This document shows positions 12,969 to 47,614 of a stretch of 64,000 nucleotides of DNA, piece by piece (position 1 is the first letter of the stretch; each line of letters opens with the position of its first letter). The translations under genes were made by a program, and so were the position numbers. The notes under the pieces were generated by a model that did no database searches, had not been told where the DNA came from, and saw only the letters and a list, made by a program, of their open reading frames with translations. Location: assembly GCA_027307335.1 (NCBI GenBank), contig DAHUXD010000019.1, positions 6,712 through 70,711 on the forward strand, given 5' to 3'. The DNA is from Acidobacteriota bacterium (GTDB taxonomy: Bacteria; Acidobacteriota; Thermoanaerobaculia; UBA5066; Gp7-AA6).

Positions 12969-15806
12969 TCAGGGAGCCGACGGGAAGGTCTTGACGATGA
13001 GCGCCGCGGCCTGGCCGCGCGTGACCGGGTTTTCCGGACAGAAGTTGCCGCCCCCGCAGCCTCCGGTGATGCCCTCCTGGGCGGCCGCCTCGATGTAGTC
13101 GGCCGCGAAGGAGTCGGCGGGCACGTCCCCGAAGACGGTACCCGTCGCCGGCGGCGGCAGGTACCCCGGTCCGTGCTCGGCGCGCAGCAGGAAGACCATC
13201 ATCTGGGCGCGGGTCACCGGCGAGAGCGGACAGTAGTCCGGATACCCGCAGCCGGCGGTGATCTGGTCGAGGAGGAACTGCTGAATGTACGGACCGAAGC
13301 CCGAGCAGCGATCGACGTCGGCCATGGGAAGCGTCTGGTTCGGGCCGCCGAAGACCGGATCGAAGGGGTAGCCCGCGCCGCGCATCGCCTTCTCGACCTG
13401 CACCGCGGCCTGACCGCGGTTGAGCGGCGTGCCCGGGCAGAAGTTCCCGCCGCCGCAGCCGCCGGTGACGGCGCGCTGCGTGAGCGCGACGACGCTCTCG
13501 TGGAACGGAGACGCCGGCGGAACGTCGGCGAAGTCGAAGACGAACGCGCGCAGGGAGTCCTGCTGCGGCTCGCCCGTCACGACCTTCACCGCGACGGCGC
13601 CGGCGGCGCCGGCGGGCGTGATCGCGGCGATGTGCGTGTCGTCCACCACCGCGAAGTCGGCGGCGGCGGTCTGCCCGAAGAAGAGGCCGACGACGGACGC
13701 GAAGCCGGTGCCGGAGACGATGACGAGGGAGTCCCCGGAGGCCGGGCCGGAGGGCGGCGCCACGCCGGCGATCGACGGCGGCGGCGTGGCGGACCGGTGG
13801 ATGTGAAAGACGCTGCCGAATCCGGCGAGGTGCAGGAGGCTGCCGTCGCTCGCGATGGCGAGGCTCGAGCCGTTGTCGTTGTCGACGGTCGGAAGCCCGC
13901 GGTCGTACGGGCTCCACGTGAGTCCCGCGTCGGTGCTGACGTACACCGCCCGGCCGTCCGGCGAGAGCGGCAGATTCGTGGCGGCGTAGGCAGTCGAGGG
14001 ATTCGCGGGGTCGAAGACGATCGAAAGGATGCCGTTCGTCTGCGGCATCCCGGAAAACGAGGGCTGCCAGCTCGCGCCGCGATCGGCGCTGCGGTATAGG
14101 GGAGCGATCATCGTGACCGGGTTCCCGCCCCCGCCGCCGAGCATCAGGTTCGGGTCGGTGGGACTCTGGGCGAAGGCGGTCAGCTGCGCCCCCCCGAGAC
14201 CCGTGTCCGACGGACTCCAGGTCGCGCCGTGGTCGGTGCTCACCTGATTCAGCCCGTCCACGAGGCCGTAGAGGCGCCCGTCGACCGTCGCGTCCGCCAT
14301 CATCCAGTCGACGAAGTACGTGCCCGAGCTCGCGGGTGCCCAGGAGTCACCGCCGTCGTCGGAGAAGTAGAGATGGTTGGCGAGCACGTAGACGCGCCCG
14401 GCATCGGTCGGGGGCACGACGAACTCGGTGGCGTCGATGGCCGCACCCGCCGGAAGCGCTCCGGTGGCCGTCCAGCTCGCGCCCGCGTCGGTGCTGCGGT
14501 AGATGCCGCCGCGGTCCATGAGGCAGACGTAGACGGTCTCGGGCGACCCGGGCTGCACGGTCATTGCGGTGATCCGGCCGGTCGGCAGGTCGGTGGAGAC
14601 GTTCGCCCAGGTCGCCCCGGCGTCGAGGCTCCGGAAGACGCCGGCGCCGCCTCCCCAGGGATTCGCATACCAGAGCGTCGCGTCCGCGGCCGGATCGACG
14701 ACGACCCATCCGAAGAGCAGACCGGCGAACGCCTCGCCGGGGCCGGTCCAGGTGGCGCCGCCGTCCGTCGTCCGGAAGACGCCGTTGCCGGCGGAGCCCG
14801 CGAACCAGAGGCCCGCAGCGGCTCCCGGCACGAGCGCGCTCGGTGCGATCGACGGCAGTCCGACGTTGACCGGCGACCAGGTGGCGCCAGAATCCGTGCT
14901 CACGCGGACCCCTCCGGTCATGCTCAAGACGTAGACCCCGGGGCCGAACGGATCGATCGCGACGCCGATGTACGCCTCGCTCGGAAGGGTCGCGACGGCA
15001 TCCCAGGTCACGCCACCGTCGGCGCTGCGGAAGACGGCGCCGCTCGATTCCCCGGTGATCTCGTTGAAGGAGTTGGCCGCTGCCCAGGCGACGAGCGGGT
15101 CGGCGGGGTTGACCGCCACCTGGGACACGTTCTGCGCGAGCGGCGCGAACAGGACCGATGTCCACTGATCGCCCCCGTCGACGCTGCGAAAGAGGCCGTG
15201 GCCCTGCATGTTGGCGAAGAGAATCCGGCCGTCAGCGGGCGAGACGCCGAGGGAAGTGATGCCGAACTGACCCGGCGGAAGGCCCTCGTTGGCGGCCGCG
15301 TTCCACGAACAGCCGCCGTCGTCGGTTCTCCAGACGCCGGCGAGCGTGGCGGCGTAGACGGTCGACGGGGCCTGCGGATCGACCACGATCGCGTACGCTT
15401 CCTCGTAGGCGCTCGTCGGATTGACGATGTCCTGAGAGACCCAGTGATCCCCTCGATCCGTCGACTTTGCGACGAAGGAGCTGTACGTCGAGGCGTACAG
15501 CGTCGAGGGCGACGTCGGGTCGATCGCGAGTCCCGTGATCCACCGCGCCGGCAACCCCGTGTCGATCGTCGTCCACGTCTGGCCGCCGTCCGTCGAGCGG
15601 AAGACGCCCGCGTACTGCGCGGCCGCGTAAACGACTTGCGGGTTCGTCGGGTCGGCCACGAGCGCCGGCACGGCGCCGGCCCAGGGCCCGGTCGTCGTCC
15701 ATTCGTTGACGCCGCCGCGCGCCGTCACGGCGGCGGCGAGACAGACGGCGAAGCCCGCGAACGCCCGGAGCCCCGGGGCCCGAACCGCCCGAATTGTGCG
15801 AATCAT
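12969..15806 (-). CDS. Large secreted BNR/Asp-box repeat (beta-propeller) surface protein with an IPT/TIG domain and a C-terminal triple SLH-like module
   Basis: Has a signal peptide (MIRTIRAVRAPGLRAFAGFAVCLAAAV), more than 10 SxDxGxTW repeats, and three C-terminal repeats of F.DVP...GITGGCGGGNFCP..VTRGQ. Confidence 0.75.
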   Translation of the reverse strand: MIRTIRAVRAPGLRAFAGFAVCLAAAVTARGGVNEWTTTGPWAGAVPALVADPTNPQVVYAAAQYAGVFRSTDGGQTWTTIDTGLPARWITGLAIDPTSPSTLYASTYSSFVAKSTDRGDHWVSQDIVNPTSAYEEAYAIVVDPQAPSTVYAATLAGVWRTDDGGCSWNAAANEGLPPGQFGITSLGVSPADGRILFANMQGHGLFRSVDGGDQWTSVLFAPLAQNVSQVAVNPADPLVAWAAANSFNEITGESSGAVFRSADGGVTWDAVATLPSEAYIGVAIDPFGPGVYVLSMTGGVRVSTDSGATWSPVNVGLPSIAPSALVPGAAAGLWFAGSAGNGVFRTTDGGATWTGPGEAFAGLLFGWVVVDPAADATLWYANPWGGGAGVFRSLDAGATWANVSTDLPTGRITAMTVQPGSPETVYVCLMDRGGIYRSTDAGASWTATGALPAGAAIDATEFVVPPTDAGRVYVLANHLYFSDDGGDSWAPASSGTYFVDWMMADATVDGRLYGLVDGLNQVSTDHGATWSPSDTGLGGAQLTAFAQSPTDPNLMLGGGGGNPVTMIAPLYRSADRGASWQPSFSGMPQTNGILSIVFDPANPSTAYAATNLPLSPDGRAVYVSTDAGLTWSPYDRGLPTVDNDNGSSLAIASDGSLLHLAGFGSVFHIHRSATPPPSIAGVAPPSGPASGDSLVIVSGTGFASVVGLFFGQTAAADFAVVDDTHIAAITPAGAAGAVAVKVVTGEPQQDSLRAFVFDFADVPPASPFHESVVALTQRAVTGGCGGGNFCPGTPLNRGQAAVQVEKAMRGAGYPFDPVFGGPNQTLPMADVDRCSGFGPYIQQFLLDQITAGCGYPDYCPLSPVTRAQMMVFLLRAEHGPGYLPPPATGTVFGDVPADSFAADYIEAAAQEGITGGCGGGNFCPENPVTRGQAAALIVKTFPSAP

Positions 15807-19700: not shown

Positions 19701-20324
19701 CTAACGAAGGCCGCGCGCTTCGAGCTTCGAGCTTCGGATTTCTCTCTGGGCGACGGCGTCCACCCGGCGAGCGGTCCACACCAGCCGGTACGGCGCCGGG
19801 CCGAGGAAGTGAAAGGGATAGCAGGTGACGAGCGTCAGCCGATCTCCCGGGAGCGGGGAAATCGCGCCGAGGTCGTCGGGCTTCACGACTCGTCGGCTCT
19901 CGAGGCGGTAGGTGGCGGCGAGGCCGCCGCCGTGCAGCGTCACGACGTCGCCGGCCCGCGCTCCCTCGAGCCGGCGGAAGAACGTGTCCCGGTGCGCGGA
20001 GATGACGCACGACGACGGCGCGCCGTCGCCGGGCCAGCCGGTTCCACGGAGGTGGCCCGGGCCCTTGCGGAGGGTCTCGTCGGACGTGCCCTCGAAAACG
20101 ACGGCGTCGAGCCCCACGCGGGAGAGCGTCAGTCGTCCGAGCGGCTCGCCTTCGCGCCGGGCCGCGCGGGTCGCCGGAGGGGCGTCGGTTTTCGCGACGA
20201 GTGCGGCCGCGCCGTGCTCCTGGGCGCGCGCAGCGATCCACCAGTGCATCGCGGGCGGGACGAGCAAGAGAGCGCCCGCGAGGATCAGCAGGTCGCCGAG
20301 AGAGCGGAGATACCAGGCGCGCAT
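19701..20324 (-). CDS. Sortase-family transpeptidase
   Basis: N-terminal TM helix, catalytic His in ISAHRDTFF, Cys in LTLVTCYPF, and Arg in YRLVWTARR. Confidence 0.65.
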   Translation of the reverse strand: MRAWYLRSLGDLLILAGALLLVPPAMHWWIAARAQEHGAAALVAKTDAPPATRAARREGEPLGRLTLSRVGLDAVVFEGTSDETLRKGPGHLRGTGWPGDGAPSSCVISAHRDTFFRRLEGARAGDVVTLHGGGLAATYRLESRRVVKPDDLGAISPLPGDRLTLVTCYPFHFLGPAPYRLVWTARRVDAVAQREIRSSKLEARGLR

Positions 20325-20390
20325 CGGATCACCGCGCTTCCGGAGCAGCGGCCGACCCGGGAAGGGCCGGCCGCGAGCCCGGAAACCGCC

Positions 20391-20999
20391 TCAGAAGAAG
20401 CGGCGAGCGAGGAGCCCGCCGGCGATGAGGGCCAGACCGGCGGCCGCGTAGAGCGGGTCGGCGGTGGCCGTCTTCGGCATCTCGACGGGAGCCGGCGCGG
20501 GCGGAGCCGGCGGCGGAACCGCGGCCGGAACATGGGCCGGCGGCGGAACCGGACGGGGCTTGTACACCGTCACGTTCGGGGGCTGCGCCGGAGGCGCCAC
20601 GGCCACGAAGCTGATCTCCTTGCGATCGAACACTTCTCCCGCGCGGTTGATGGCGAGGAAGGTGAGCTTGTGCGGTCCGGGCGTCACGTTCTCGAGCGTG
20701 ACGATGTTGTTCTCGTCCCGCATCCGTCCCTGGCGCGAGTCATCGAGGAACACCTGGACGTCCGGACGCGGCATGGTGTTGACGTCGCGACGCACGTCGT
20801 TGTCGCCCGGGATCTCGGTGTTCACGATGACCTGCACGGTCGGGCCAGTCACCGTTGCGCCTTCGACCGGCTGCATGATCTTGAGGCGGTAGTCGTTGTG
20901 CGTTGGACCGCCCCCATAGACGTTGGCGTTCTGGGCCCAGACGAACGCTGCGGCCGCCAGCCCCAGAACCGCGGCGGCGATCGTTTTGAGGTGTCTCAT
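20391..20999 (-). CDS. Secreted sortase-substrate candidate with an MPKTATA sorting signal
   Basis: Signal peptide MRHLKTIAAAVLGLAAAAFVWAQ, a ~150-aa domain, a Pro-rich linker, then MPKTATADP followed by a hydrophobic segment and RRFF. Confidence 0.65.
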   Translation of the reverse strand: MRHLKTIAAAVLGLAAAAFVWAQNANVYGGGPTHNDYRLKIMQPVEGATVTGPTVQVIVNTEIPGDNDVRRDVNTMPRPDVQVFLDDSRQGRMRDENNIVTLENVTPGPHKLTFLAINRAGEVFDRKEISFVAVAPPAQPPNVTVYKPRPVPPPAHVPAAVPPPAPPAPAPVEMPKTATADPLYAAAGLALIAGGLLARRFF

Positions 21000-41095: not shown

Positions 41096-43408
41096 TCACT
41101 CCGGCCGCGGGGTCGGACGCGGAGTCGGACGGCGCCCGCGGTTCGGCGATGGCTGCGGGGGGTGCGCCTGGGCGCCGCGCGCTGGCGGGGCCTCCCGCAC
41201 CTCTCCCCGATTCGGCGTGGGCGGCACCCTTCCGGGAGGGGCCGACTCGCGCTCGGCGGCGGACCGCGGCGGCGCGGCCTCGCGCGCCTCGGGGTTCTCT
41301 CGTGCCGGCGGAGCGGCCTCCCGTTGCGGATGGACGCGCGACGGCGGCGTGGGCATCGGACTCCGCGGCGCGGCGTTCTCTCTCTGTCCCGCCGCGGGCG
41401 GACGGTCGTCGGGATGCAGATACGCCGGCGTCGGGCGCAACCCGCGCGGCGGCGCCTCGGCCGTCTCACGCTGCGGCTGCGGAGGGACCGCGGCCGGAGG
41501 CGCGCTCTCGCGATCGCGCCAGTTCGCGGGCGGCGTCGCTCTCGTGAAGGAGGGCGTCGGACGCAGGTCCTCGCGAGGCACCGCGAGCGCCGGCTCGTCC
41601 GGACGACGCCCCTCGAGAGCGGGCGCGGTCGGGCGGCCGAGCGGCGCGGACTGCGGACGCGCTTCGGCGCCCGTGTTCGGCCGCGTCTCCGCGCCGGGCT
41701 GAGGCCGCGCCGGCGCGGGCGTGGGACGGAGCGGCTGTGTCTCGCGCGCCGCGGCGGCGGGGGGTGCGCCCCGGCTCGCCGTCACCGGCTGGACCTGTTT
41801 CTGCCGCGCGGCGTTCGGCTGCGCCGGGGAGAGGCGAACGTTGCCGGCCTCGGCCGCGACGGAACGAACCGGGACGACCGACGCGGCCGCGTTCGGCACG
41901 AGACGTGCCGCGGCCGCCGGGGCGACGGGCGCCTTGTTCTCGCGGATCGTCGCGAGCTTCTGATCGAATCGCGGCGGCGCGGGCGGCGGCGCGGAGCGCG
42001 TCACGACGGAGCGCGACACGACCGCGGCGGGAGGTCGCGGCGCCGGAGCGGAACCGGGGCGCGCGGCCAGGCGCACCGACGACGCCGTCGGCAGAACCGG
42101 GACGCGTCCCGCGACGACCGGGGCGGCGGAGACCTGCCGCACGATCGCCGTCTCGCGAACGACGGCGGGCGCGACGAGATTCCCGGAGACGAAGGTGTTC
42201 TGGTTGACGACCGTCACGTACGTGCGATTGACGTACGTCACGTTGGTGACCTGCGTGACGTTGACCTGCGCGCGGCGCGGTCCCCACCACGGGACGAGCG
42301 GGTCGGCCGGCGCGAGCGGAAACCATCCGACGTAGGACGGCGCGGCCGTGACCGCGACGCCCACGCCGCCGAGGGGCCCGCCGACGAACGCGACGAGAGC
42401 CGGCGCGTAGGCGACGGTCGTGACCGCCGGCGCCACCGGCACCCAGTACCAGCGCGACGAGTAGGTCACCCACCGGCCGTAGTGATAGGGCGCCCAACCC
42501 CAGGGTTCGGTCGAGACCCACGTCCATCCCCACGGGTCCTGCCAGGTCCAGCGCCCGTCGCGATACGGCGCCCAGCCGGCCTCGACCGACGCCGGCGTCC
42601 ACACGTGTCCGTATCCGGGGACGTCGTCCCAGCGCCCGTAGGCGTCGAGGTCGGCCGCGCCGACGATGCCGGGGCTCACGTAGCGCACCGACGCCGCTCG
42701 GAGCTCGCGATCCTGGCGCGTGTCCGCCCAGCCGTCCCAGCGGTCGGGCGGGGGAGTCGCCACGACCTCGTAGCGCGGCGCGTCGGTGCCCTCGATCATG
42801 ATCGCCTCGCCGTCGCCGAGGGCCAGCTGACCCCCGCCCGCCGCCACCGTCGCGTCGCCGCGGCGGACGACGACGCGCGTCTGGCCCGACTCGTCGACGT
42901 CGACGCGGTAGCGTCCCGGCCGGTCGAACGTGACCGCCGCGTTCGGCGTGTCCACCTCGAAGATCTCGCCGGGCGCGAGCCGCGGCACCGCGAAGGAGGC
43001 GATGCCCGACTTGACGGCGAACTGCGATACCTGCTCGGTCAGGTTCAGCGTCGCGAGGTCGGTGCGCGCGCCGAGATCCACGAGCGCGCCGTGTTCGAGC
43101 TGGAGCTCGAGGCTGCCTTCGCCCGTGTAGACGCGATCGCCGATCGTCATCGGGACGTTGACGTCCGCGTCCTGCCACTCATCCGGGTCGTCGCCCCGCG
43201 CGAACGAGACGTTCCCGTTCAGGTACGAGATGCGCGCGACCGACTGGGAGATCCCGGAGTCGGCGGCGTCGTACGCGCCGGGCTGCTCGAGGGGATAGCC
43301 CTGCTGGGGCGGGTAGCCGGACTGCTGGGCGCCGAGCGGCAGCGCGAATCCTCCGAGCAGCCCGAGCAGGGTGCGGCGCCAGCGCCGCCAACGCCTTCCT
43401 CCGTTCAT
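41096..43408 (-). CDS. Secreted FecR-domain protein with a Trp/Tyr-rich region and a long Pro/Ala/Arg-rich tail
   Basis: Signal peptide, FecR-like sequence (ISYLNGNVSFARGDD), then WGWTWVSTEPWGWAPYHYGRWVTYSSRWYWVP. The C-terminal extent is uncertain because the frame runs on as low complexity. Confidence 0.55.
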   Translation of the reverse strand: MNGGRRWRRWRRTLLGLLGGFALPLGAQQSGYPPQQGYPLEQPGAYDAADSGISQSVARISYLNGNVSFARGDDPDEWQDADVNVPMTIGDRVYTGEGSLELQLEHGALVDLGARTDLATLNLTEQVSQFAVKSGIASFAVPRLAPGEIFEVDTPNAAVTFDRPGRYRVDVDESGQTRVVVRRGDATVAAGGGQLALGDGEAIMIEGTDAPRYEVVATPPPDRWDGWADTRQDRELRAASVRYVSPGIVGAADLDAYGRWDDVPGYGHVWTPASVEAGWAPYRDGRWTWQDPWGWTWVSTEPWGWAPYHYGRWVTYSSRWYWVPVAPAVTTVAYAPALVAFVGGPLGGVGVAVTAAPSYVGWFPLAPADPLVPWWGPRRAQVNVTQVTNVTYVNRTYVTVVNQNTFVSGNLVAPAVVRETAIVRQVSAAPVVAGRVPVLPTASSVRLAARPGSAPAPRPPAAVVSRSVVTRSAPPPAPPRFDQKLATIRENKAPVAPAAAARLVPNAAASVVPVRSVAAEAGNVRLSPAQPNAARQKQVQPVTASRGAPPAAAARETQPLRPTPAPARPQPGAETRPNTGAEARPQSAPLGRPTAPALEGRRPDEPALAVPREDLRPTPSFTRATPPANWRDRESAPPAAVPPQPQRETAEAPPRGLRPTPAYLHPDDRPPAAGQRENAAPRSPMPTPPSRVHPQREAAPPARENPEAREAAPPRSAAERESAPPGRVPPTPNRGEVREAPPARGAQAHPPQPSPNRGRRPTPRPTPRPE

Positions 43409-44151
43409 CGCGACCTCCCGGAGAGCGCGGGACCGCCGCCGGTGCGGACCGGGCCGGTGCGGTCGCCGCGGATCGTAATGTCGGTGTCGCCGCGGCGGCG
43501 CGCGAGGCGCGTCACGACGATCAGCACCGCGATGATGAAGCCCAGGACGAGGAGCCAGATCGACCGGGAAGCCGTGTGCGCATTCGCCGTCGCGGCATCG
43601 TTCACCACGACGGGGCGCTGTTCGGAAACGGGCTCCGGGGGAACCGCGGACTGGGCCGCCGCGGTGGACGTGCTCTGCGTCGTCGCGGGTTCGCCGGTCG
43701 TGCCGGGTCCCGACGTCGGCGGCTGCTGGTCGGCCGAGGTCGATCCGGCGGCGGCCGCCGCGGCCGCGCCCTGATCGGACTTGTCCGCGTCGGCCGATGG
43801 AGGCGCCGCCTTCGGCGTCTTCGCGCTGCGGCGGGCGCGGCGCGAAGCCGCGCTCTTGTCGGAGGAAGACGAGCGCGACGTCGAGGGCGCGGCCTCGGCC
43901 GGCGGATTCGCGTTCACCGGAGGCGCGGGAGCCACGCCGCTGTCCGGCGGGACCGGGACCGGCGCGGCGCTCGTGTCCGACGACGGGTTCGCCGCCGACG
44001 GATTCGGCGCCGGCGCCGGCGCGGCGGACGAAGTGGGCTGGCCGGTGACGCCGGGCGTCACCGGCGGCGGCGCGTTCTGATCCTGCGCCGCGGCATAACC
44101 CGCGAACGCCAGGGCGCTCGCGATGATCAGCGCTCGAGAGACAGTCTTCAC
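43405..44151 (-). CDS. Secreted Pro/Ala/Ser-rich protein with a C-terminal TM anchor
   Basis: AAGGAGG RBS 6 nt before the GTG start. Has a signal peptide (KTVSRALIIASALAFAGYAAAQ) and a C-terminal IWLLVLGFIIAVLIVV helix. Its stop overlaps the downstream start (ATGA). Confidence 0.5.
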   Translation of the reverse strand: MKTVSRALIIASALAFAGYAAAQDQNAPPPVTPGVTGQPTSSAAPAPAPNPSAANPSSDTSAAPVPVPPDSGVAPAPPVNANPPAEAAPSTSRSSSSDKSAASRRARRSAKTPKAAPPSADADKSDQGAAAAAAAGSTSADQQPPTSGPGTTGEPATTQSTSTAAAQSAVPPEPVSEQRPVVVNDAATANAHTASRSIWLLVLGFIIAVLIVVTRLARRRGDTDITIRGDRTGPVRTGGGPALSGRSR

Positions 44152-44457
44152 GGTAAGCCTCCTTGTTCGTTGGTCGTCAGCGGCGCGAGAGCCGCGCACC
44201 CGACGAACATGAAAGGAGCATGTTCCGTGCCATTTTCGGAGACTCGCCGTTTCGCGACGGCACAAGGACTTGCAGATGCCGCGCGCGCTTCCGACTCGGC
44301 GTCTTCTCGACACGCGTCCTCGCGAAGCGACGCGCCGGCCTCGAGAAAGAACGACGGTTTCGACTAGGAGGGCTTCCGGACTCCCGCCCGGGAGGAGCTT
44401 CCGGTGCCGTTCGGCGCCGCGTTCGGCGGCGGCTCGACGCGCACCGTCTGGCCGCGC

Positions 44458-46917
44458 TCACTGCAGGTTGAATGTCTTCGTGATGAACACCGCCATCTGG
44501 CCGCGCGTGTTCGGGTTGCCCGGGCAGTAATTGCCGCCGCCGCACCCGCCCGTGATGCTCTCCGTCGCGAGCTGCTCGATCCAGTTGGCGAAGGTCGACG
44601 GACAGGCCACGTCCATGAATGCGCCGACGCATTCGGGAGGCACGTAGGCGGATCCGTGCTCGGCCTTCAGGAGGAACACGGCCATCTGATCGCGGCGGAC
44701 CAGATTCTGAGGGCAGAAGTTGCCGCCGCCGCAGCCGCCGGTGATGCCCTCGTTGGCCATGGCCTCGATCCAGTTGGCGAAGGTCGAGGGGCAGGGGACG
44801 TCGCCGAACATGCCGCTGCAGGGCGGCGGCGTGTAACAGAGCCCGTGCTTGGCCTTGAGGATGAAGACCGCCATCTGCTGGCGCAGCGTGTCGTCGGCCA
44901 CGCCGTACAGCCCGCCCCCGATGCCCGCGGTGATGCCGTTCGAGACGAGCTTCGTGACGTAGGAGTAGAACTGGTTGGCGTTGGGGACGTCGGTGAAGTC
45001 CGCGACGAACGCCTTGACCAGGGTGCCCTTCGAGCCGTCCGTGTTGGAAACGACGAGGTCGTTGGCGGTTCCCGGGGCGAGCGCGGGCGTCGTGGCATTC
45101 ATGTCGTTGTAATCCGTGACGCTGACTCCGGTCGCCGAGATGCCCCCGATCGTGACGGTCGCGCCCGCCAGGAAGTTGGTTCCATGGATGGTCAGGGCCG
45201 TGCCGCCGGACGGCGGCCCCGACTGAGCGCTGATCGAGAAGGGCAGGCGCTGGGAGAACTCGGAGGTGTTGCCGTTGGGATCGGTCGCGGTGACGGAAAT
45301 GCGATCTCCGCTCACCGTCGCGCCCAGCCCCGAGACGTTGAAGGTGACGTTGCCCGAGCCGTCGGTCGTGGCAGGGCCGGAGCCGAGGTAGGCCGCGCCC
45401 TGGACGTATTCGCGCGGGAAGTTCGAGCAGCCCGGGCTCGAGTAGAAGTCGAGCTGGAAGGTCGTGTTCGCGGTCGAGTTGAGAACGCCGGCGACGGTCG
45501 TGCTGGCCCCGTAGGTCACCGAAGAGACGACCGGAAAGTTCTGAAGGTTGTTCGGTCCCGTGTCCGCGTCGCCGAAGTCATTCGCCGTTGCGCCGTCGTC
45601 GTTGAGGTCGATGCCGGTCCCTGCGTTGTCGTGAATCGAGTTGCCGCGGATCGCGGTGCCGGCAACCGGTCCGGTGACTACCACGCCGGTCCCGGCGTTG
45701 AAGGCGATCAGGTTCCCGGCGCCCGGATCGGTGCCGCCGACGGTTACGTTGTCGGCCTGGAGCAGGACGCCCGGACCCTGGTTGCCGAGAGCGATCGTCC
45801 CGGTCACGTCCGTGCCGATGAAATTACCCTCGATCGTCGAGCCCTCCGCGTAAGTCATCGAGATTCCGGAGGTGGTGTTTCCCGAGATGACGTTCCCCGC
45901 GCCGGCGGCTGAGCCGCCGATCGTGTTGTTCCAGCCGCCGGAGGCGATGCCCGAGCTCGCGTTGCCGAGGGGCAAGGTGCCGGTGACGTCGGTGCCGATG
46001 AAGTTGCCCTGGATCACGTTGTTCGTGACCGTGTTGTCGTTCAGGCTGTTGCTGAGGGAGATGCCCCCGAGGTTCCCGGAGATGACGTTGCGCTCGGCCG
46101 GTGTCGTGCCGCCGATGTGGACGCCGGAGGTGACGTGACCGAGCACGATCCCCGGATAGACCCCCGGCAACGCGCCCGTGCCCAGTGCGTTGGTGCCGAT
46201 GAGGTTGCCCTGGATGACGTGGTTCGTGCCGCCGTTCGTCTCGATCCCCACGAAGTTGCCGGAGATGAGGTTGCGCGCCGCCGGCGTCGTGCCGCCGACG
46301 AGGACGTTGGTGATGGCGCCGTCGATCGCGATGCCATAGCCGAGGTTACCCTCGGCCGTCATTCCAGAGGGATCGACGCCGATGAAGTTGCCCTCGATCA
46401 CCATGTTCGACACGTCGACCTGGATCCCGGCGCTCCTGCCGCGGTTGAACACGAGCCCGCGGACGATGCTGCCCTGGCTCGTCCCGGTGAAGAGGAATAT
46501 TCCGAAGCCAAACGATGGGGTCAGGTTGACCCCGTCGAGCTCGATGAGCAGGACGGCGTTCGTTGCCTCCGTCGGCCCGTTCGTGTTCGCGCTCGTGCCC
46601 GGCTGCGTGTAGCCGTCGATCGTGACGGGGACCAGGATGTTGGGATAGTCCGCGGCCGGTGTGATCGTGTGGACGCCGGTCCCGGAAATGTTGAACGCGA
46701 TGGTCGAGCCGGAGTTCGCGTTCGCGAACGTGATCGCGTCGCGCAGCGTGCAGGTTCCCGTTCCGGTCGTCGCGCAGGCGCCCATGGAATCGCCCGTATC
46801 GGTGACCGTCACGGTCGCGGCGTTCGCGGCGCATGCGAGGAGAAGCAGGAGCGTGCCGGAGAGCCACACCGCGACGCGGGGATATCCGACCCGGGACTCC
46901 GGAGTCGAAGCACTCAT
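44458..46917 (-). CDS. Large secreted right-handed beta-helix (pectate-lyase/NosD-like) surface protein with an IPT/TIG domain and a C-terminal triple SLH-like module
   Basis: Signal peptide, many GNxIxGN beta-helix rungs, and three C-terminal repeats of F.DVP..FANWIE...GITGGCGGGNFCP...MAVFL. Confidence 0.75.
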   Translation of the reverse strand: MSASTPESRVGYPRVAVWLSGTLLLLLACAANAATVTVTDTGDSMGACATTGTGTCTLRDAITFANANSGSTIAFNISGTGVHTITPAADYPNILVPVTIDGYTQPGTSANTNGPTEATNAVLLIELDGVNLTPSFGFGIFLFTGTSQGSIVRGLVFNRGRSAGIQVDVSNMVIEGNFIGVDPSGMTAEGNLGYGIAIDGAITNVLVGGTTPAARNLISGNFVGIETNGGTNHVIQGNLIGTNALGTGALPGVYPGIVLGHVTSGVHIGGTTPAERNVISGNLGGISLSNSLNDNTVTNNVIQGNFIGTDVTGTLPLGNASSGIASGGWNNTIGGSAAGAGNVISGNTTSGISMTYAEGSTIEGNFIGTDVTGTIALGNQGPGVLLQADNVTVGGTDPGAGNLIAFNAGTGVVVTGPVAGTAIRGNSIHDNAGTGIDLNDDGATANDFGDADTGPNNLQNFPVVSSVTYGASTTVAGVLNSTANTTFQLDFYSSPGCSNFPREYVQGAAYLGSGPATTDGSGNVTFNVSGLGATVSGDRISVTATDPNGNTSEFSQRLPFSISAQSGPPSGGTALTIHGTNFLAGATVTIGGISATGVSVTDYNDMNATTPALAPGTANDLVVSNTDGSKGTLVKAFVADFTDVPNANQFYSYVTKLVSNGITAGIGGGLYGVADDTLRQQMAVFILKAKHGLCYTPPPCSGMFGDVPCPSTFANWIEAMANEGITGGCGGGNFCPQNLVRRDQMAVFLLKAEHGSAYVPPECVGAFMDVACPSTFANWIEQLATESITGGCGGGNYCPGNPNTRGQMAVFITKTFNLQ

Positions 46918-47042: not shown

Positions 47043-47324
47043 CTATCGGTAAGCGTCCTTTCGATGGTCGGCGGCCGTCAGGAACACGACACGCTTGTCG
47101 TCGTCGATCTCGTAGAAGATCCGCCAGGCGCCGATCCGGATTCTCCATGTCGGAGGGTCCCACTCCTTGAGGCGCGCCGCGGACGGCACCTCGCGAGGCG
47201 CGGCCCTGAGGACCGGGTAAACGCGTTCCGTCAGAGTGTTCTGGATTCGCCGGGCCGCCTCCGCTCCGAGGCCGTCGAGGTCGCGCCGGAAGCCCGAGGT
47301 CTCGAAGAGCCGATACTCAGACAA
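47043..47324 (-). CDS. RelE/ParE-family type II toxin
   Basis: 93 aa, with WRIRIGAWRIFYEIDDDKRVVFLTAADHRKDAY matching the RelE/ParE fold consensus. It overlaps the upstream antitoxin by 8 nt. Confidence 0.7.
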   Translation of the reverse strand: MSEYRLFETSGFRRDLDGLGAEAARRIQNTLTERVYPVLRAAPREVPSAARLKEWDPPTWRIRIGAWRIFYEIDDDKRVVFLTAADHRKDAYR

Positions 47325-47556
47325 ACCGGCCCTTGCGGGAAGCCGCTTCGCGATGACCTCTCTTCAGGCGTTTCCGAAGAGCGGAATCCGAACGAATCCC
47401 GGCCATCTCGGAATCGGAGACGAAAATCTCCGAGGCGGCGCGTTGCAGGGCGGCCGTCTCGATGAAGTTCGAAACCGAGCGGTTCTGGGCGGCGGCCGCT
47501 TCCGCGATGAGGCGGTATGCCGCGTCGTCGATGCGGACGGTCAACGATTTGGGCAT
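47317..47556 (-). CDS. Ribbon-helix-helix type II antitoxin (ParD/CopG-like)
   Basis: 79 aa, beginning MPKSLTVRIDDAAYRLIAEAAA. Sits immediately upstream of and overlapping the toxin. Confidence 0.6.
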   Translation of the reverse strand: MPKSLTVRIDDAAYRLIAEAAAAQNRSVSNFIETAALQRAASEIFVSDSEMAGIRSDSALRKRLKRGHREAASRKGRFV

Positions 47557-47614
47557 TGCATCACTCCGATGTCATTTTAACATCACAGTGATGCACTCGG
47601 TCAGGACGGAAAAT

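Follow-up and report, generated by a model that had tools for sequence, protein, structure and literature searches.

A cysteine-paired version of the C-terminal triple SLH module in two exported proteins of a Thermoanaerobaculia bacterium

A 64,000-nucleotide stretch of DNA from an uncultured Acidobacteriota bacterium (contig DAHUXD010000019.1 of assembly GCA_027307335.1, positions 6,712 to 70,711 of the forward strand; hereafter the window) was found to encode two exported proteins, here called A and B, whose C-terminal modules of three repeats are members of the S-layer homology (SLH) family and carry paired cysteines in the loops of most repeats. The preliminary description of this DNA, which was made from its letters and reading frames, had reported that both proteins end in a triple SLH-like module and that this module is a divergent variant of SLH. 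Both statements were borne out, as A and B were found to have a C-terminal cassette with three repeats each in common, and both proteins reached the Pfam threshold, with modules that aligned with SLH regions of known proteins and were predicted to adopt their fold. We consider it reasonably probable that the module is a disulfide-stapled SLH pseudo-trimer, which would anchor diverse exported proteins non-covalently to an anionic glycan of the cell envelope through pockets of arginine, glycine and aromatic residues.

Searched as whole proteins, A and B scored 60.6 and 49.4 bits respectively against the SLH profile PF00395, both above its gathering score of 20.8 bits, and the profile was also matched by 60 of 62 complete relatives (E≤1e-5). 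When the repeats were scanned singly, A1, A3 and B1 passed the cutoff, B2 fell just below it, B3 scored lower and A2 was unmatched (Table 1); A2 aligned gap-free with the other five repeats and displayed the same helix-loop-helix pattern as they did in the model of the A module. Residues 1-43 of A1, A3 and B1 mapped to positions 2-44 of the Pfam SLH model with no net insertion or deletion, and the module aligned over its full length with SLH regions from SbsB, Sap and OmpM1. AlphaFold2 models of the modules, predicted with a 53-sequence alignment, were confident (predicted local distance difference test score, pLDDT, 94.4 and predicted template modelling score, pTM, 0.87 for B; pLDDT 91.1 and pTM 0.88 for A) and contained six main helices, with the helix-loop-helix pattern occurring three times, such that the three repeats are predicted to form a pseudo-trimeric, three-pronged spindle. 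In Foldseek searches of the PDB, every match at E≤0.001 was to the SLH trimer of either Sap (3PYW, 6BT4) or SpaA, with template modelling (TM) scores of 0.78-0.86. Because of the Pfam threshold, the end-to-end alignment, the predicted fold and these structural matches, the modules of A and B are assigned to the SLH family.

The cores of the six repeats (49 amino acids) aligned without gaps at 33-69% identity and recurred with a period of 63-69 amino acids, not the approximately 55 given in the preliminary description. Two cysteines spaced C-x5-C were present in five of the six repeats, as GGCGGGN[FY]CP in four and as AGCGYPDYCP in A2, and a six-frame search of the window found the cysteine motif in these five places only. 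The exception is B1, the first repeat of the second protein, which had been correctly described as Cys-free. The loop cysteine columns of B2 and B3 were invariant in 53 homologues, and further conserved cysteines of B were located in the linkers between repeats, as the pairs C700/C709 and C763/C772 (PPxCxGxFxDVxCP), together with C694. Both reading frames lie on the minus strand; the preliminary description was also silent on the linker pairs and C694. Cys694, which is unpaired in the linker between the first and second SLH repeats, and Cys497, upstream of the IPT/TIG domain of B, were each invariant in all 12 full-length homologues, and this pattern suggests a putative inter-domain disulfide between passenger and anchor.

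How the cysteines vary together was examined with a 46-position hidden Markov model (HMM) of the repeat, applied to 474 unique repeats from 119 genome loci and to the repeats of 148 independent representatives at 50% identity. In the first set both loop cysteines were present in 430 repeats, neither in 34 and one only in 2 (the other 8 were partial matches gapped at one of the two cysteine positions). Similarly, both were present in 432 repeats of the second set, neither in 30 and one only in 1. For the second pair, in which the linker PPxC is matched with the DVxC of the next repeat, both cysteines were found in 150 cases and neither in 293, with 12 cases discordant. Among 129 triple modules elsewhere, 28 had a first repeat without the cysteine pair, and such Cys-free repeats had V or I and G at the cysteine positions. 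Paired presence and absence of the loop cysteines fits a disulfide, and since the proteins are exported and their cysteines strictly paired, the pattern would be the signature of disulfides. The preliminary description had called the module possibly disulfide- or metal-stabilised; the disulfide half of this proposal accords with the counts and the metal half is the weaker option, because a loop offers only two thiols, and these come and go as a pair. The loop GGCGGGNYCP, rich in Cys and Gly, would be flexible enough to wrap a metal ion, but we consider it very unlikely that the C-x5-C thiols bind zinc, iron or copper, or are redox-active, in place of forming structural disulfides. Each alpha1-alpha2 loop of an SLH trimer occupies a prong of its own, so that three cysteine pairs cannot make one metal site; where repeat 1 loses both cysteines, as it often does, no compensating ligands take their place; and the extra cysteines of these exported proteins are paired as well.

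Alignment of the loop with that of canonical SLH domains set G-I-T-G-G-C-G-G-G-N-F/Y-C-P against G-h-h-x-G-Y-x-D-G-T-F-x-P, in which the cysteines stand in for the Y of "GY" and the x of "FxP". The cysteine segment had previously been read as an insertion. This reading was rejected, as the Pfam mapping shows no net insertion or deletion and the loop is the same length as that of SbsB; the change is a same-length substitution. In SpaA, the ligand pocket is built from SLH-Arg43 of one repeat, the backbone of SLH-28 to SLH-30 (including the hinge residue SLH-Gly29) of the next and SLH-Trp13 of the third (Blackler 2018, PMC6081394). The first cysteine of the loop corresponds to SLH-30, directly after the hinge and pocket glycine, and the second precedes the conserved proline; the SLH-30 equivalent in SpaA is the pocket residue Lys110 (PMC6081394). 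Equivalents of Gly29 and Arg43 were present in all six repeats of the window, with position 13 occupied by W in B2 and B3, by Y in A2, A3 and B1 and by S in A1. Across the family (where Gly25 and Arg39 in the numbering of the repeat HMM are SLH-Gly29 and SLH-Arg43), the glycine was conserved in 461 of 474 repeats from the genome loci and 465 of 472 from the 50%-identity representatives, and the arginine in 460 of 474 and 462 of 472, a conservation of approximately 97-98%. In both data sets position 13 was W, F or Y in approximately 88% of repeats, and the E of the TRAE motif was replaced by Q in approximately 89%. TRxQ is a known variant, found as TRAQ in the third SLH domain of SpaA (PMC6081394).

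N-terminal to the cassette that they have in common, the two proteins were found to be unrelated when compared with each other. Protein A matched the Pfam families Sortilin-Vps10 (E 1.2e-37), BNR (8.5e-21), TIG (3.8e-09) and SLH (1.4e-16), and its propeller matched the NCBIfam F510_1955 glycosylhydrolase family (187.6 bits; cutoff 175). Protein B matched SLH (4.4e-13), Beta_helix (4.4e-09), TIG (8.1e-09) and NosD (7.2e-07), as well as TIGR03804 and TIGR04214, and its gene was also called at 819 amino acids in assembly GCA_027313945.1. N-terminal signal peptides were visible in both sequences, that of A being read by eye as MIRTIRAVRAPGLRAFAGFAVCLAAAVTA/RG (the slash marking its end). With 945 and 819 amino acids, neither is the "giant" protein previously announced. 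Similarity between them begins at residue 682 of A and residue 562 of B, and the common cassette, consisting of the TIG domain and the three repeats, spans 265 amino acids at 41% identity (E 3e-42). The idea that the two arose by recent duplication, or exchanged sequence by gene conversion, was rejected, given this protein identity and a DNA identity of approximately 70% over approximately 230 bp; modules from other metagenomes reach as much as 89% identity to that of B, which also speaks against it. In GCA_027313945.1, A lies on contig DAHVCS010000099.1 and B on DAHVCS010000157.1, which terminates with the 3' end of lhr (window position ~37587), and the 130,641-bp NCBI contig from which the window is taken joins both.

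Table 1. Proteins A and B, their IPT/TIG domains and their SLH repeats, in window coordinates.
Feature	Residues	Window position	Strand	Description
Protein A		12969..15806	-	945 aa ORF: Sec-type signal peptide, BNR/Sortilin-type propeller, IPT/TIG domain, three SLH repeats
IPT/TIG domain of A	677-750	13557..13778	-	Pfam PF01833; first part of the cassette common to A and B
SLH repeat A1	759-807	13386..13532	-	loop GGCGGGNFCP, motif LNRGQ; Pfam SLH 23.5 bits
SLH repeat A2	828-876	13179..13325	-	degenerate loop AGCGYPDYCP, motif VTRAQ; no Pfam match alone
SLH repeat A3	892-940	12987..13133	-	loop GGCGGGNFCP, motif VTRGQ; Pfam SLH 44.6 bits
Protein B		44458..46917	-	819 aa ORF: signal peptide, CSLREA-like N-terminus, parallel beta-helix, IPT/TIG, three SLH repeats
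IPT/TIG domain of B	561-626	45040..45237	-	Pfam PF01833
SLH repeat B1	641-689	44851..44997	-	Cys-free loop AGIGGGLYGV, motif TLRQQ; Pfam SLH 29.1 bits
SLH repeat B2	704-752	44662..44808	-	loop GGCGGGNFCP (C729/C735), linker pair C700/C709; Pfam SLH 20.2 bits
SLH repeat B3	767-815	44473..44619	-	loop GGCGGGNYCP (C792/C798), linker pair C763/C772; Pfam SLH 14.2 bits alone

The repeat was found in thousands of other proteins, so that neither of the outcomes named beforehand as refuting the preliminary reading (no alignment to SLH profiles, no occurrence elsewhere) was observed. A sequence library clustered at 90% identity and at 50% identity was searched with the B module, which matched at least 4,488 of the 90% clusters; the few of these that were named were "S-layer homology domain-containing protein" from Thermoanaerobaculia or Acidobacteriota metagenome-assembled genomes (MAGs). 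Among the 50%-identity representatives there were 37,411 matches at E≤1e-3, 12,389 at E≤1e-10 and at least 2,801 at E≤1e-30. A DNA-pattern scan for GGCGGGN[FY]CP, with one genome per species, gave at least 119 stretches in at least 56 genomes. Among the matches listed, the genomes comprised 37 Acidobacteriota, 11 Chloroflexota (mostly Anaerolineales), 5 Gammaproteobacteria and three singletons on short contigs; single Acidobacteriota MAGs contained at least 10 module-bearing open reading frames (ORFs), and 128 of 194 such frames had exactly three repeats. Of 127 proteins having at least three repeats and an intact C-terminus, 124 had 6-13 amino acids between the end of the module and the stop. 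Passengers in the 62 complete proteins included TIG, beta-helix/NosD, FG-GAP, cadherin, Ig, GH44, subtilase, M12B metalloprotease, glucose/sorbosone dehydrogenase and galactose-oxidase-like domains, among others, with both proteases and glycosidases represented, and the IPT/TIG spacer was present in 16 of the 62. Because the module is C-terminal and fused to such diverse passengers, its pattern, as read from sequence, is that of a generic anchor, and the many paralogues per genome with enzyme passengers would argue for anchored exoproteins rather than one S-layer lattice protein.

Tandem arrays of module genes were frequent, occurring at locus L107:1398-7587 (Thermoanaerobaculia MAG SMAG_U5757) and also at L003, L013, L075 and L111; at L107 three module genes lie in a row within 8 kb, and two of them encode proteins 55-59% identical to B. 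The Gammaproteobacteria MAGs with the stapled SLH motif include Chromatiaceae, two Sedimenticola and Arenicellales (loci L019, L033, L048, L055, L080, L082 and L116). Some of their carrier contigs are 81-189 kb long, and horizontal transfer and binning error are both conceivable sources.

In the arrangement that we propose, a Sec-exported passenger (the BNR/Sortilin-type propeller of A or the parallel beta-helix of B) would be followed by the IPT/TIG spacer and then by the three SLH domains, which would fold jointly into the classical pseudo-trimeric spindle and serve as a non-covalent anchor holding the passenger on the glycan of the cell envelope. Binding chemistry would most likely be that of canonical SLH trimers, each inter-repeat groove presenting a pocket composed of SLH-Arg43 (R in TRxQ), the SLH-Gly29 backbone (final G in GITGG) and the aromatic residue SLH-13, with an anionic sugar of the pyruvate-ketal type as its probable ligand. 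The alpha1-alpha2 loop lining each groove would be closed by a disulfide from SLH-30, next to Gly29, to the residue before the conserved proline, and in many cases the linker between repeats would be held by a second disulfide, from the cysteine of its PPxC to that of DVxC at the beginning of the following repeat. The two bonds, formed under the oxidising conditions outside the cytoplasm, would make the module more rigid.

Several observations weigh against this arrangement. The covariation counts are inflated by shared ancestry, and most of the repeats lacking Cys are the first repeat of a single module subtype. The Lhr helicase of the window has its best named relatives, at 71-96% identity, in Thermoanaerobaculia, and the window contains an AsmA-family gene, which fits a diderm envelope; judged by these genes, the host is a diderm of the Thermoanaerobaculia. 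In such a host a wall-bound ligand would confine large passengers that act on glycans to the periplasm, an odd location for enzymes of this kind. A survey of 1,093 genomes, which reported co-occurrence of SLH with CsaB among diderm Terrabacteria, found the two to be practically absent in Gracilicutes, so that the canonical ligand may be absent from this host; it also found them lost in the clade of Chloroflexi and the Candidate Phyla Radiation (CPR) (Witwinowski et al., 10.1101/2021.05.31.446380). The preliminary description had suggested looking for csaB-like pyruvyltransferase genes; no PS_pyruv_trans/CsaB (PF04230) gene or wall-glycan locus was found among the genes of the window, and no csaB-like gene in approximately 1 Mb of DNA flanking 119 related loci, the latter being a weak test (phmmer with E. 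coli WcaK and a regular expression for an N-terminal motif).

The main rival explanation retains the SLH fold and places a different ligand outside the outer membrane, such as a pyruvylated or acidic exopolysaccharide (EPS), capsule or lipopolysaccharide (LPS), with the exo-enzymes displayed on the surface or matrix. The glycan could, for example, be the product of EPS-type pyruvyltransferases, independent of CsaB, and not a polymer linked to peptidoglycan. Carriers that are mostly diderm Acidobacteriota with some Gammaproteobacteria, the near absence of SLH/CsaB from Gracilicutes (10.1101/2021.05.31.446380), passengers typical of extracellular hydrolases and adhesins, the Q for E in the TRAE motif and the lack of csaB near any locus would all agree with such a ligand. 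However, the csaB search was a weak one covering flanking DNA only, the ligand proposed is putative, the Arg/Gly/aromatic pocket residues are those of canonical binders of secondary cell wall polymers (SCWP), and the Chloroflexota carriers have no outer membrane, as is established (10.1101/2021.05.31.446380); we therefore regard a ligand outside the outer membrane as possible and rather doubtful. A further explanation, that the module serves mainly to direct sorting or secretion, as do the C-terminal domain (CTD) of the type IX secretion system (T9SS) and PEP-CTERM, and not as an anchor, would account for its strict position at the extreme C-terminus with a 6-13 amino acid tail and for very diverse passengers with many paralogues per genome. 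It appears extremely improbable to us, as fold and sequence are those of SLH, neither a transmembrane segment nor a known sorting motif is present, a C-terminal triple SLH is already known as the anchor of Clostridium thermocellum SLAP proteins (PMC8559796), and the module is found in monoderm Chloroflexota as well as in diderms, groups with no single secretion system in common. Anchoring to an envelope glycan through canonical pockets is the explanation that we favour. A more speculative idea, which we put forward tentatively and do not expect to hold, is that the cysteine-stapled TRxQ triple module might be a separate and overlooked surface-display system of Gracilicutes-type diderms (Acidobacteriota and some Gammaproteobacteria) and Anaerolineae, independent of CsaB-pyruvylated wall polymer, which would place dozens of exo-enzymes per cell on another envelope or matrix glycan (e.g. 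acidic or pyruvylated EPS or LPS), with the disulfide adjacent to Gly29 setting a new specificity for the ligand.

Protein A is encoded next to genes for an aldo-keto reductase, a CcoI-type ATPase and a cbb3 oxidase, and protein B next to a ParE/RHH pair, a Pro/Ala-rich membrane protein and a FecR/DUF6600 protein; a wall-related operon context was rejected, with nothing wall-related adjoining either gene. The pair directly upstream of B, a ribbon-helix-helix (RHH) antitoxin and a ParE toxin (window ~47043-47600), was also observed at L122:5853-6366. On its own strand, B is followed downstream by two genes with ends overlapping by 4 bp (41096-44313, minus strand), which encode a Pro/Ala/Ser-rich protein of 248-302 amino acids with a C-terminal membrane segment and a 770-amino-acid FecR/DUF6600 protein. 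Elsewhere in the window (region 19701-20999), a sortase gene (PF04203, ~19701-20324, minus strand) was found, and the gene just upstream of it ends in PVEMPKTATADPLYAAAGLALIAGGLLARRFF before the stop, with an LPxTG-like "MPKTAT", a hydrophobic stretch and a basic tail. Its product is a candidate for a dedicated sortase substrate, and the arrangement is presumably similar to that of the Gram-negative sortase subfamily whose signals read LP[QK]T[AS]T.

Knowledge of SLH anchoring comes almost entirely from Firmicutes, Deinococcus-Thermus and cyanobacteria. A and B themselves are ordinary members of a large family; what is new is the stapled subfamily and its phylogenetic distribution. This cysteine-paired version of SLH is undescribed and very widespread, our literature search having found no paper on the motif, nor any that links SLH domains of Thermoanaerobaculia or Acidobacteria with cysteine or CsaB. 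Given the survey in which SLH/CsaB was practically absent or lost there (10.1101/2021.05.31.446380), the subfamily is abundant exactly where SLH has been thought rare, being attached to many kinds of secreted hydrolase and adhesin in soil and sediment bacteria that are abundant and for the most part uncultured. If the module anchors, it would point to an unrecognised envelope or matrix glycan in these bacteria and to a way in which they organise their exoproteome, and it would offer a natural disulfide-locked SLH scaffold that could serve display technology. Should the ligand simply be a CsaB-type polymer, a known mechanism would be extended to new phyla.

Tethers of the OmpM/SlpA type in diderm Terrabacteria provide one comparison, as there too SLH acts in a diderm envelope, where it binds modified peptidoglycan or SCWP, and the module profile matched the SLH domain of OmpM1 (8BZ2, E 4e-5). 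OmpM has one SLH domain per chain, joined to a beta-barrel porin, and trimerises via a coiled coil, whereas A and B lack a barrel and combine three repeats in a single chain with a passenger of the enzyme or adhesin type; with the SLH module C-terminal, a propeller or beta-helix and TIG upstream and no porin domain by Pfam or NCBIfam, they are not tethers of this type. The canonical SLH trimers, Sap of B. anthracis (3PYW/6BT4), SpaA of P. alvei (6CWC) and SbsB of G. stearothermophilus (4AQ1), likewise consist of three tandem repeats and are alike in the predicted spindle fold, in loop length (SbsB) and in the conserved SLH-Gly29, SLH-Arg43 and aromatic position 13. Sequence identity to Sap and SpaA is only 13-23%, however, and no cysteine is present at the loop positions in the aligned stretches of Sap and SbsB, whereas in A and B C-x5-C flanks the loop and a second cysteine pair would staple the linkers; TRxQ almost replaces TRAE here, and the carriers belong to Acidobacteriota, Chloroflexota and Gammaproteobacteria rather than to Firmicutes. 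The same architecture is found in the non-S-layer exoproteins of Firmicutes with a C-terminal triple-SLH anchor, such as Clostridium thermocellum SLAP1/2 and SLH-bearing enzymes (PMC8559796; 10.1101/2021.05.31.446380), in which a passenger is likewise followed by three C-terminal SLH repeats as a generic anchor, and from which the proteins described here differ by their mostly diderm hosts, their cysteine-stapled loops and their frequent IPT/TIG spacer.

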